From Escherichia phage vB_EcoM_JB75, in the sequence record MH355584.1: 64,000 nucleotides of DNA. One strand, 5' to 3'. Below are positions 2,223 through 44,793 of the stretch, in pieces. Position numbers and translations under genes: made by a program. Within the stretch, counting starts at the first letter, position 1. Each line of letters opens with the position of its first letter. A model generated the notes under the pieces. It was not told the DNA's origin. It searched no databases and saw nothing but the letters and a program-made list of their open reading frames with translations.

Positions 2223-3847
<1,625 letters not shown>

Positions 3848-37882: not shown

Positions 37883-38851
<969 letters not shown>

Positions 38852-38939: not shown

Positions 38940-39413
38940 ATGAAAACATATCAAGAATTTATCACTGAAGCAGCTATTAATTCTCAAATTATTGCTGAAT
39001 CTTTTACTGATCTTTTGAAATTTAAAAAAGGTCAAAAAATTACTGCTGTATTGGATGATGGTACAGAAGTTGAGATGGATGTACAGGGATATAATTATGC
39101 AGTAGATGGAAAACTGTATAATAAATCTCATGCTAAATTTGATTCATTTGACGACTTTGTTAATACAGTTGAAGATGAAAAAACTCGTCGATCCATTGCA
39201 ACTGGTGATGCTAAGGTTCTTATGGCACATGGTCATGAACGCATTCGCGCTAAACAGAATAAAATGGGTGAAGATAATTTTGCATTAGTTGGTTATCAAT
39301 CTGGTAAACAAACTTATGGCTATCAACGTACTGCTACAATGTATAATAAAAATGGTAAAATTGCCTTTGTAAATAGTAAAGGTTCTATTCAGTACGTTAA
39401 ATCGTTCAAATAA
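38940..39413 (+). CDS. internal protein (CTS MKTYQEFITEA), in the ipIII position
   Basis: 157 aa; canonical CTS with ITE cleavage site; early promoter upstream. Confidence 0.7.
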   Translation: MKTYQEFITEAAINSQIIAESFTDLLKFKKGQKITAVLDDGTEVEMDVQGYNYAVDGKLYNKSHAKFDSFDDFVNTVEDEKTRRSIATGDAKVLMAHGHERIRAKQNKMGEDNFALVGYQSGKQTYGYQRTATMYNKNGKIAFVNSKGSIQYVKSFK

Positions 39414-40439: not shown

Positions 40440-40802
40440 ATGAAAGCATATCAAATTCTTGAAGGCACACACAAAGGCACTATTTATTTTGAAGATGGTA
40501 TTCAAGCACGAATTATCGTTTCTAAAACCTTTAAAGAGGACTCTTTTGTAGACCCAGAAATTTTCTATGGTTTGCATGCCCGTGAAATTGAAATTGAGCA
40601 ACAGCCTACAGTTAAAATTGAAGGTGGTCAACACCTGAACGTTAACGTTCTGCGTCGTGAAACTCTGGAAGATGCAGTTAAGCATCCGGAAAAATATCCG
40701 CAGCTGACCATCCGTGTATCCGGTTATGCAGTTCGCTTTAACTCTCTGACTCCGGAACAGCAGCGCGACGTTATCGCTCGTACCTTTACCGAGAGTTTGT
40801 AA
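40440..40802 (+). CDS. autonomous glycyl radical cofactor (GrcA/YfiD-like; T4 Y06I-type)
   Basis: 120 aa; C-terminal ~60 residues match E. coli YfiD/GrcA as I recall it, including the radical glycine in RVSGYAVRF. Confidence 0.85.
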
Positions 40803-41561: not shown

Positions 41562-41594
41562 TGTTTACTTTTCCTCTTGACTGTGGTATAATTT
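41562..41594 (+). promoter_or_regulatory. T4-type early promoter (upstream of regB)
   Basis: CTGTTTACTTTT ... TGTGGTATAATTT. Confidence 0.55.
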
Positions 41595-41619
41595 TTCTAT
41601 CAGTTAAGAGGAGAACAAC

Positions 41620-42081
41620 ATGACTATCAATACAGAAGTTTTTATCCGTCGAAATAAGCTTCGTCGTCACTTTGAGTCGGAGTTTCGTCAAATTAACAAT
41701 GAGATTCGTGAGGCATCAAAAGCAGCAGGAGTCTCATCGTTTCATCTAAAATATTCTCAACATCTTCTTGATCGTGCAATTCAACGGGAGATTGATGAGA
41801 CATATGTTTTTGAATTATTCCATAAAATAAAAGACCATGTTTTAGAAGTTAATGAATTCCTGAGTATGCCTCCGCGTCCTGACATTGACGAGGATTTTAT
41901 TGATGGGGTTGAATATCGTCCTGGACGTTTAGAAATCACAGATGGAAATCTTTGGCTTGGATTTACGGTTTGTAAGCCTAATGAGAAGTTCAAAAACCCG
42001 TCACTTCAATGCAGGATGGCAATTATCAACAGTCGTCGTTTACCAGGAAAGGCTTCTAAAGCAGTAATTAAAACTCAATGA
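41620..42081 (+). CDS. regB: site-specific endoribonuclease RegB
   Basis: 153 aa; length and position match T4 regB; own promoter and SD. Confidence 0.8.
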   Translation: MTINTEVFIRRNKLRRHFESEFRQINNEIREASKAAGVSSFHLKYSQHLLDRAIQREIDETYVFELFHKIKDHVLEVNEFLSMPPRPDIDEDFIDGVEYRPGRLEITDGNLWLGFTVCKPNEKFKNPSLQCRMAIINSRRLPGKASKAVIKTQ

Positions 42082-42088
42082 GGTAAGC

Positions 42089-42634
42089 ATGAGAAAAGCA
42101 CTACTCGCTGGTCTATTGGCCATTTCAATGATGGCACATAGCTCCGAGCATACTTTCAGTAATGTCCAACTCGATAACATGCGTTACGCGTATCAATTCG
42201 GGGAACAATTTTCTAAGGATGGAAAATATAAAACACACAAAAATATCCACAAGAGCGGATTAGGTCATATAATGGCTGCTATTTTATGGCAAGAAAGCTC
42301 TGGCGGAGTTAATTTAAAATCTAAACCAAAGCATCACGCTTATGGAATGTTCCAAAATTATTTGCCTACTATGCGAGCAAGAGTTAAGGAACTTGGTTAT
42401 AATATGACCGATGCTGAAATAAAAAGAATGTTGAATAAACGATCCAATTCAGCTTCCTGGGCGTACATTGAACTTTCTTATTGGTTAAATATACATAAGG
42501 GCGATATAAGAAAAGCAATATCATCTTATAATTCGGGATGGAATGTTAAAGCAGGTTCTAAATATGCTTCTGAAGTCCTAGAAAAGGCTAATTACCTTAA
42601 AAATAATAAACTTTTGGAAATAGTAAATGACTAA
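42089..42634 (+). CDS. secreted lytic-transglycosylase-like protein (T4 vs.1 position)
   Basis: N-terminal signal peptide MRKALLAGLLAISMMAHS; SLT-type motifs LWQESSGG and YNSGWN. Confidence 0.6.
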   Translation: MRKALLAGLLAISMMAHSSEHTFSNVQLDNMRYAYQFGEQFSKDGKYKTHKNIHKSGLGHIMAAILWQESSGGVNLKSKPKHHAYGMFQNYLPTMRARVKELGYNMTDAEIKRMLNKRSNSASWAYIELSYWLNIHKGDIRKAISSYNSGWNVKAGSKYASEVLEKANYLKNNKLLEIVND

Positions 42635-42974
42635 AATTTTGGTTTTATGTATAGGATTAATTTCATTTTCTGCTTCTGCGTCAGCAGATACATCATATAC
42701 TGAAATTAGAGAATATGTAAATCGCACTGCGGCAGATTATTGTGGGAAAAATAAAGCATGCCAAGCTGAATTTGCGCAGAAATTAATATATGCATATAAA
42801 GACGGAGAAAGAGATAAATCAAGCAGATACAAAAACGATACATTATTAAAACGATATGCTAAAAAGTGGAATACCTTAGAATGTTCAGTTGCGGAGGAGA
42901 AAGATAAAGCCGCTTGTCATTCAATGGTTGACCGTTTGGTAGATTCTTATAATCGAGGATTGAGTACTAGATGA
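42627..42974 (+). CDS. vs: valyl-tRNA synthetase modifier-like protein (T4 vs position), signal peptide
   Basis: 115 aa as T4 Vs; N-terminal signal sequence and four Cys. Confidence 0.55.
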   Translation: MTKILVLCIGLISFSASASADTSYTEIREYVNRTAADYCGKNKACQAEFAQKLIYAYKDGERDKSSRYKNDTLLKRYAKKWNTLECSVAEEKDKAACHSMVDRLVDSYNRGLSTR

Positions 42975-43438
42975 TTGTAAAATATATCAAGGGCGATATT
43001 GTCGCCCTTTTCGCTGAAGGTAAAAATATTGCGCATGGATGCAATTGTTTTCATACTATGGGTTCAGGCGTAGCGGGTCAATTAACCAAAGCTTTCCCTA
43101 AAATTTTGGAAGCTGATAAATTACAGACTGAATGGGGTGATGTAACTAAACTCGGTTCTTACTCAGTCTATGAAAAATACTTTAGGACTCATAAAGCGTA
43201 TTGCTTCAACCTTTATACTCAATTTCAACCAGGGCCAAATTTTGAGTATTCCGCTTTAATGAATTGTATGTTAGAATTAAATGAGTTTGGTGAAAATAAA
43301 CTGATTAAACCTACAATCTATATGCCTAGGATTGGTGCAGGCATAGGTAAAGGGAACTGGGATATTATTGAGGGGATTTTAGATACATATTCCTCTAAAT
43401 TAGAAATTGTGATTGTTGATTGGGAACCGTTATTATGA
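42971..43438 (+). CDS. macro-domain protein
   Basis: 155 aa; macro-domain glycine-rich motifs HGCNCFHTMGSGVAGQ and IGAGIGKGNW. Confidence 0.6.
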   Translation: MIVKYIKGDIVALFAEGKNIAHGCNCFHTMGSGVAGQLTKAFPKILEADKLQTEWGDVTKLGSYSVYEKYFRTHKAYCFNLYTQFQPGPNFEYSALMNCMLELNEFGENKLIKPTIYMPRIGAGIGKGNWDIIEGILDTYSSKLEIVIVDWEPLL

Positions 43439-44211: not shown

Positions 44212-44793
44212 ATGGCGAGTTTAATTTTTACTTATGCAGCAATGAATGCTGGAAAATCTGCTTCTCTTTTGACTGCCGCACATAATTATAAAGAACGTGG
44301 AATGAGTGTATTAGTTCTTAAACCCGCTATTGATACTCGCGATTCTGTCTGTGAAGTTGTTTCTCGCATTGGAATTAAACAGGAAGCGAATATTATTACA
44401 GATGATATGGATATTTTCGAGTTCTATAAATGGGCTGAAGCACAAAAAGATATTCATTGCGTATTTGTAGATGAAGCCCAGTTTTTAAAAACTGAACAGG
44501 TGCATCAATTAAGTCGAATTGTTGATACATATAATGTTCCTGTTATGGCTTATGGATTAAGGACTGATTTCGCTGGAAAATTGTTTGAAGGTTCTAAAGA
44601 ACTTTTAGCGATTGCAGATAAACTTATTGAACTAAAGGCGGTTTGTCATTGCGGTAAAAAAGCGATTATGACAGCTCGATTAACGGAAGATGGAACACCA
44701 GTTAAAGAAGGTAATCAAATCTGTATTGGTGATGAAATTTATGTTTCTTTGTGTAGAAAACATTGGAATGAATTAACTAAAAAGCTCGGTTAG
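44212..44793 (+). CDS. tk: thymidine kinase
   Basis: 193 aa; P-loop AAMNAGKSASLL, Walker B VFVDEAQF, zinc-ribbon cysteines; T4 tk length. Confidence 0.95.
   Translation: MASLIFTYAAMNAGKSASLLTAAHNYKERGMSVLVLKPAIDTRDSVCEVVSRIGIKQEANIITDDMDIFEFYKWAEAQKDIHCVFVDEAQFLKTEQVHQLSRIVDTYNVPVMAYGLRTDFAGKLFEGSKELLAIADKLIELKAVCHCGKKAIMTARLTEDGTPVKEGNQICIGDEIYVSLCRKHWNELTKKLG

Follow-up and report, generated by a model that had tools for sequence, protein, structure and literature searches.

What would a virulent phage do with a cell wall enzyme that looks secreted, is made early in infection and is not its endolysin? The question arises from a gene at 42089..42634 on the + strand of the stretch of Escherichia phage vB_EcoM_JB75 DNA analysed here (64,000 nucleotides of record MH355584.1; hereafter the window, to which all coordinates refer). 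The open reading frame lies exactly where the original prediction placed it. It starts with ATG, has 181 codons, ends with TAA and encodes a precursor of 20.7 kDa (pI 9.8) that contains no cysteine. A Shine-Dalgarno sequence, GAGG, is read at 42080..42083 (+), 5 nt before the ATG, and the same GAGG is marked as the ribosome binding site of this gene in the T4 record X04567. The opposite strand of this interval is full of stop codons.

Gene identity and previous reports

The encoded protein is 100% identical to Vs.1 of bacteriophage T4 (ORF 61.4, an entry in the 1986 T4 record X04567; UniProt P13311, Y06E_BPT4; T4p112). On the DNA level there are four differences from T4, all four synonymous and none non-synonymous. 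A chance open reading frame was ruled out by conservation and by the mass-spectrometry detection of the T4 protein. The interval 42089..42634 is a real gene, vs.1 of a T4-type (Tequatrovirus) phage.

The genes of this region are arranged in the order e, an internal-virion-protein gene, vs.8, vs.7, vs.6, vs.4, vs.3, regB, vs.1, vs, tk.4, tk and rI. Directly upstream of vs.1 lies the endoribonuclease gene regB (41620..42081, +; Pfam REGB_T4, E=5.9e-69; PHROG 1323). Downstream follow vs (42627..42974, +), annotated as a 115-aa 'valyl-tRNA synthetase modifier', tk.4 (42971..43438, +), which has a macro domain, and tk (44212..44793). The order regB-vs.1-vs-tk.4-tk is the same in T4, RB69, Dhakavirus and Marfavirus, and the adjacency of regB and vs.1 was found in Tequatrovirus, Mosigvirus, Dhakavirus and Marfavirus. 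Over the 1.9 kb around vs.1, identity is 99.8% with Escherichia phage vB_EcoM_C2-3 and >95% with some 490 further Tequatrovirus genomes. Given the identity with T4 and the shared gene order, the finding re-identifies a catalogued T4 gene.

T4 has the same neighbours as the window (regB, vs, tk.4 and tk) but differs from it between e and vs.8. Here the window has another internal-protein gene, a single one of 157 aa at 38940..39413 (+), which falls into PHROG 3155 (E=6e-102; 'internal virion protein'). In this region denV, ipII and ipIII are all missing. T4 has ipIII, ipII and denV after gene e, while phage C2-3 has denV there. The e-vs.8 interval looks like a locus at which T-even phages vary in their internal-protein genes. 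Further along, vs.6 (40440..40802, +) encodes a 120-aa glycyl-radical protein (Pfam Gly_radical, E=2.5e-18), which resembles the autonomous glycyl radical cofactor GrcA, a stand-alone glycyl-radical domain. Its product is listed as abundant, under the name GRCA_BPT4, in the T4 proteomics tables of the PMC9697503 supplement.

The SLT similarity of vs.1 was already reported in 2003 and 2006, and the prediction is not new. Nolan et al. 2006 (PMC1524935) described vs.1 as conserved in T4-like phages with a marginal SLT match (E 0.012-0.74), and pointed to PSI-BLAST matches with lysozyme domains that the T4 genome review had given before. Among the GenBank records, some annotate vs.1 homologues as 'transglycosylase SLT domain-containing protein'. 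In the searchable literature we found no enzymatic, localisation or genetic study of Vs.1; what it has is the comparative-genomics note of 2006 and tables from omics work. For a genome scan, the value of the finding is the confirmation of a published prediction, not a discovery. What we add is a confident fold assignment, the conservation of the motifs at the level of single residues, the conservation of the export signal family-wide across three phage families and the link to published expression data.

Fold and presumed active site of Vs.1

The Pfam SLT profile (PF01464) matches residues 61-154 of Vs.1 with E=1.4e-5 and 25.1 bits, the curated gathering threshold of this profile being 21.3 bits. 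Of the 35 orthologues, whose identity goes down to 40%, 33 match this profile too, the best of them at E=1.3e-7. A search of NCBIfam with Vs.1 gave no matching family. The match to PHROG 600 covers residues 1-178 (E=2.1e-68), and this family is annotated as 'unknown function'.

The original prediction rested on two SLT-type motifs. Both are confirmed, and a third one can be placed between them. Motif I, LWQESSGG (aa 66-73; 42284..42307, +), contains W67, E69 and G73, which are invariant in the 35 orthologues, and the pair E69-S70 is invariant or nearly so. Motif II is YGMFQ (aa 85-89; 42341..42355, +), the counterpart of the GLMQ of the β-hairpin, in which G86, F88 and Q89 are invariant. Motif III, YNSGWN (aa 147-152; 42527..42544, +), is the counterpart of AYNAG, with invariant Y147, N148 and G150. 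More distant homologues keep the last two motifs as well: MGAFQN and SSYNAG in Kuttervirus, YGIFQN and ASYNAG in Felixounavirus.

The presumed catalytic residue is Glu69 (codon 42293-42295, +), as judged from the alignment with MltE E64 and Slt70 E478. In hhalign, E69 stands opposite MltE E64 (E 0.11) and Slt70 E478, which is precursor residue 505 (E 0.29), and the GMFQ of Vs.1 stands opposite the GLMQ of both enzymes. These statistics are weak because each template (MltE, Slt) was a single sequence.

Structure prediction supports the SLT fold too. The single-sequence AlphaFold model was unusable (pLDDT 47), and the AlphaFold2 model built on the 35-sequence alignment was used in its place (mean pLDDT 88.8, pTM 0.83). 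It is all-helical except for one short β-hairpin with strands at residues 84-85 and 90-91. Foldseek searches of the PDB and BFVD with this model back the SLT fold, and its lysozyme-like α-helical fold superposes on solved lytic transglycosylase catalytic domains. On the sequence level, phmmer of Vs.1 against the PDB gave no match. The best hit of a profile search against the PDB was a non-significant goose-type lysozyme (E=0.39), whose AAYNTG aligns to motif III. Since there is no significant sequence match in the PDB, Vs.1 is a divergent member of the fold and its assignment to the solved families relies on fold comparison. The placing of E69 as the probable catalytic residue likewise rests on the agreement of motif and fold. 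Support for the fold that the original prediction needed has thus come from the Pfam SLT match, from the AlphaFold2 model with Foldseek and from the invariant motifs.

The same fold in the same location could also carry out hydrolytic chemistry, as in a muramidase like goose-type lysozyme or in a GH23 enzyme like the chitinases. The g-type lysozymes carry auxiliary aspartates in the loop and the β-hairpin after the catalytic Glu. In the 35-orthologue alignment of Vs.1, however, no Asp or Glu between residues 70 and 127 is invariant, and the second invariant acid is E128. The lack of an invariant acid in the loop and hairpin that follow E69 fits a single-carboxylate lytic transglycosylase better than a g-type lysozyme. 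Moreover, the E-S, G-x-x-Q and Y-N-x-G patterns match those of family-1 lytic transglycosylases and align to MltE and Slt70, the Pfam match is to SLT, and E. coli has no chitin, which argues against a chitinase-like enzyme. We consider a hydrolase improbable, while lytic transglycosylase chemistry is, as far as the sequence can tell, reasonably likely for Vs.1.

Timing of expression and separation from the endolysin

The true endolysin gene of the phage, e (T4 lysozyme; 38357..38851, +), was recognised by the translation of its open reading frame and by the PHROG endolysin and tail-lysozyme families. It lies 3.2 kb upstream of vs.1 and is served by a late promoter of its own, the motif TATAAATA, which a late-promoter motif search placed at 38323-38330 (+). 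After that, the motif is absent on the + strand between 38323 and 44803, and none is found on the - strand nearby. Late or antisense transcription of vs.1 was rejected for this lack of TATAAATA on either strand near the gene.

An early-type sigma-70 promoter is found upstream of regB at 41564..41592 (+). It consists of TTTACT, a 17 nt spacer and a TG-extended TATAAT, with a 10/12 match in the promoter scan, and is the nearest plausible promoter for a regB-vs.1-vs transcript. It would also drive vs.1, because the gap between regB and vs.1 is only 7 nt and there is no terminator call between them. In time-resolved omics of T4, the vs.1 RNA is classed as 'early' and the protein as 'middle' (PMC9697503 supplement). 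According to the same supplement, the protein (P13311) is detected by mass spectrometry at modest intensity, which rises through infection to the last time points. The early promoter, the lack of a late motif nearby and the RNA class agree with the predicted early expression, and the distance from e with its own late promoter agrees with the predicted separateness from the endolysin.

The two co-oriented genes regB and vs.1 differ in their ribosome binding sites. That of regB, GAGGAG (41609..41614), contains the RegB target tetranucleotide GGAG, whereas the GAGG of vs.1 does not. The latter would be consistent with continued translation of vs.1 after the inactivation of early mRNA. The T4 proteomics classes in the PMC9697503 supplement are 'early' for RegB and 'middle' for Vs.1, with both RNAs 'early', and the difference in GGAG may underlie this.

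Alternatively, Vs.1 could be an auxiliary lysis enzyme which pre-weakens the wall from the periplasm, so that gpe released by the holin lyses the cell faster or when gpe is limiting. This would suit a protein of muralytic fold in what is predicted to be the right compartment, and the T4 protein accumulates to the last time points in the tables of PMC9697503. In Felixounavirus HY02 the homologue is found three genes from an Rz-like spanin and beside rIIA/rIIB. Against this, there is no late promoter nearby, the RNA class is early, and the neighbour genes are not conserved between phage families. Furthermore, e-defective T4 does not lyse its host. It follows that Vs.1 leaves the wall standing when it acts alone, and that it neither duplicates the endolysin nor can replace gpe. 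We regard an auxiliary role in lysis as quite improbable.

Predicted export signal

The N-terminal 18 residues of Vs.1 (42089..42142, +) are predicted to form a Sec (type I) signal peptide. The call was rule-based and used hydropathy, the (-3,-1) rule and conservation across orthologues. For type I, the n-region had to be positive, the h-region 7-15 residues long and the c-region polar, with positions -3 and -1 occupied by small residues. Vs.1 has the n-region MRK with two positive charges, a 13-residue h-region (ALLAGLLAISMMA) with a Kyte-Doolittle peak of 2.74, and the c-region AHS. The N-terminus thus reads MRKALLAGLLAISMMAHS followed by SEHT, with an A-x-S site. The site A-H-S/S-E obeys the (-3,-1) rule and places the predicted cleavage between S18 and S19. 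In the AlphaFold2 model, residues 1-20 are a low-confidence helix detached from the domain (helix 3-13, pLDDT 53-54).

Among the 35 orthologues the sequence of this segment drifts freely and the architecture is retained. Position -1 is S, A or G in 30/35 and position -3 is A, V, S, G, T or L in 33/35. Homologues of about 30% identity have signal-like N-termini of their own, namely MTMTTLKAMALSVTFTIASGSVHA before SQ in Kuttervirus (Ackermannviridae) and MKKLILGLCLMFTAHLSYA before VD in Felixounavirus. Taking the best 150 of 420 family members, we found a signal-like N-terminus in 114 of the 147 sequences that start with Met, and the remaining Met-initiated ones are mostly visibly truncated fragments. 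A cleavable-looking signal peptide, as claimed originally, is therefore upheld both by the rules and by conservation.

The main alternative to a cleaved signal peptide is that the N-terminus stays on, as a signal anchor or as a signal-arrest-release (SAR) segment like those of T4 RI and the SAR endolysins. Vs.1 would then be tethered to the inner membrane and possibly inactive until depolarisation. The uncharged stretch of residues 4-19 does resemble SAR composition: Ala, Gly and Ser are frequent in it, and its hydrophobicity is moderate (mean Kyte-Doolittle 1.54). However, the hydrophobic core has only about 13 residues, which is too short for a stable transmembrane helix, while a SAR domain has about 18 or more. 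The small residues at -3 and -1 are kept in spite of the drift around them, as expected of a signal peptidase I site but not of a SAR domain. In SAR enzymes the active site is restrained by the anchor, but the catalytic Glu of Vs.1 is 50 residues away from the segment. The short core and the conserved cleavage-type site speak against a SAR-type uncleaved anchor, which is disfavoured and, in our estimate, very improbable. We also rejected a lipoprotein of the MltA-E type, since Vs.1 has no cysteine anywhere and so no lipobox Cys.

With the signal peptide removed, the predicted mature periplasmic protein comprises aa 19-181 (42143..42631, +), a single SLT/GH23 domain of 163 aa and 18.8 kDa with a pI of 9.65. 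From its sequence, Vs.1 is very probably an exported SLT-fold enzyme.

Distribution among phages

We found vs.1 homologues in 2013 phage records (tblastn). They occur in Straboviridae that infect Escherichia, Klebsiella, Salmonella, Aeromonas, Acinetobacter and other hosts, in Ackermannviridae, and in Felixounavirus and relatives. A profile search of 1.84 billion representative proteins gave 420 family members, almost all of 150-210 aa, and the more distant named ones all come from Caudoviricetes metagenome assemblies. Vs.1-specific peptide patterns, an insensitive probe, gave 50 pattern matches and no confirmed relative in 185,579 bacterial and archaeal genomes. Judging by these searches, the tight Vs.1 clade looks phage-restricted.

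The neighbours of the gene change from family to family: regB in T-even phages, a recombination endonuclease region in Kuttervirus, and rIIA/rIIB-pnk with a spanin nearby in Felixounavirus. Gene context thus gives no clue to the function. An obligate pair of Vs.1 and Vs was rejected: of the two genes, vs.1 has 2013 phage records and vs only 795, and no vs accompanies the homologues of Kuttervirus and Felixounavirus. The lower count of vs and its absence next to these homologues suggest that Vs.1 acts independently of it.

The homologues of Felixounavirus HY02 (3001..3549) and Kuttervirus SenALZ1 (2953..3570), which belong to unrelated myovirus families, have two to three cysteines in the mature part and carry C-terminal basic extensions, which T4 Vs.1 does not have. 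The HY02 gene directly follows rIIA-rIIB and precedes the Rz-like spanin by three genes. A library protein of 2679 aa (P0093) matches positions 128-166 of the Vs.1 profile in 18 separate stretches (E=2.5e-35). Such an 18-fold recurrence of the C-terminal SLT motif region is odd; the protein may be built of repeats, or the match may be an artefact.

The idea that Vs.1 is an inert SLT-fold protein, which binds peptidoglycan or binds or blocks a host or phage muralytic enzyme, has in its favour that no activity of Vs.1 has been reported and that the T4 periplasmic early protein Spackle is described in PMC7677548 as acting by binding an enzyme and not by catalysis, but it is extremely improbable, since neither the catalytic Glu nor any of the three SLT motifs changes between T4 and relatives of 40% identity, and they persist at about 30% identity in the Kuttervirus and Felixounavirus homologues, the pattern expected of an active enzyme.

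Proposed activity of Vs.1

In the scheme that we propose, early or middle promoters would drive vs.1 together with regB, and ribosomes would start on vs.1 at its own GAGG site. Sec would export the precursor of 181 aa, and cleavage after Ser18 would give SEHTFSNVQLDNMR as the mature N-terminal semi-tryptic peptide. The released product would be a basic, cysteine-free, soluble periplasmic protein of 163 aa with one SLT domain (GH23, family-1 lytic transglycosylase), in which Glu69 would serve as the single acid/base catalyst. Because no second conserved carboxylate is found in the loop and hairpin after Glu69, the MurNAc-β-1,4-GlcNAc bond would be cut non-hydrolytically, leaving 1,6-anhydroMurNAc ends.

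Vs.1 would be made from minutes after infection, in low abundance, and would be distinct from the cytoplasmic, holin-dependent endolysin gpe. Since it would be early, scarce and separate from gpe, its action is expected to be limited and non-lytic. It may nick glycan strands from the periplasmic side and in this way open or remodel the host sacculus locally. We infer that Vs.1 is exported, cleaved and catalytically active and works as a transglycosylase, not as a hydrolase; its biological role is inferred too. Taken as a whole, an exported periplasmic lytic transglycosylase that makes limited, non-lytic cuts is the best explanation, and we think it likely to be right. A space-making or remodelling role is suggested by analogy and is put forward tentatively, with low confidence. 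The vs.1 region of T4 is regarded as non-essential.

Comparison with known lytic transglycosylases

Vs.1 shares 13-18% identity with Slt70, MltE (EmtA) and MltC of E. coli and with Slt and MltF of P. aeruginosa. Unlike Slt70, which has superhelical U and L domains, and MltF, which has an ABC-type module, Vs.1 consists of a single domain. MltC and MltE are outer-membrane lipoproteins, whereas Vs.1 has no lipobox Cys. Furthermore, the family-1 lytic transglycosylases used in this comparison are bacterial, while Vs.1 is encoded by a virulent phage.

EtgA of the EPEC T3SS was among the best structural matches of Vs.1 by rmsd and identity. In size, export signal and domain structure, Vs.1 is most like the small 'space-making' transglycosylases of secretion systems. 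IpgF, IagB, VirB1 and P19 are further specialised space-making enzymes of secretion and conjugation systems. However, these enzymes belong to secretion or conjugation systems, and no trans-envelope machine is encoded beside vs.1. As no partner machine is evident, the likeness concerns the mode of action, not family membership.

Other phages encode SLT proteins as well. T7 gp16, phiKZ gp144 and phi6 P5 are late proteins that either travel in the virion to serve in entry or are set free at lysis, and they are not known to have a Sec signal peptide. In contrast to these virion-associated proteins or endolysins, Vs.1 is early, predicted to be exported and placed in a PHROG of its own (600). The muralytic enzymes of the same phage, gpe and gp5 of T4, differ from Vs.1 in being GH24 enzymes with hydrolase chemistry. 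The former has a late promoter and stays in the cytoplasm until the holin acts, and the latter is a baseplate protein.

T4 is usually credited with these two muralytic enzymes, of which gpe serves lysis and gp5 entry, and a 2020 T4 paper, in its count of lysozyme genes, names only e and 5 (PMC7650644). Vs.1 would credibly make a third, and some 2,000 sequenced phages of three families retain it. To learn how it changes the wall of an infected cell would close a small gap in the catalogue of T4 genes and could reveal how virulent phages handle the host envelope before lysis. More speculatively, Vs.1 may stand for a third muralytic function that large virulent myoviruses (Straboviridae, Ackermannviridae and Felixounavirus) conserve, in which an early, Sec-exported lytic transglycosylase re-tailors the sacculus during infection, though we hold this to be doubtful. 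If it were true, Vs.1 might permit envelope expansion in prolonged lysis inhibition, ready the wall for spanins or the holin, or change it to the disadvantage of superinfecting phage.

The downstream gene vs

The ATG of vs lies within vs.1, with 8 nt shared between the two genes, and this suggests that their translation is coupled. If the broader role were true, Vs.1 of T-even phages might work together with the coupled vs product, and the label 'valyl-tRNA synthetase modifier' would need to be re-examined. An exported, disulfide-type Vs, as its sequence suggests, would be hard to reconcile with binding to a cytoplasmic aminoacyl-tRNA synthetase.

The N-terminus of Vs is signal-peptide-like, with MTKILVLCIGLISFSASASA followed by DTSY. 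Behind this segment there are four cysteines, which are invariant in the orthologues of RB69, Dhakavirus and Marfavirus. The predicted mature Vs has 95 aa and 11.0 kDa, and the T4 Vs protein is listed as detected by mass spectrometry in the PMC9697503 supplement.
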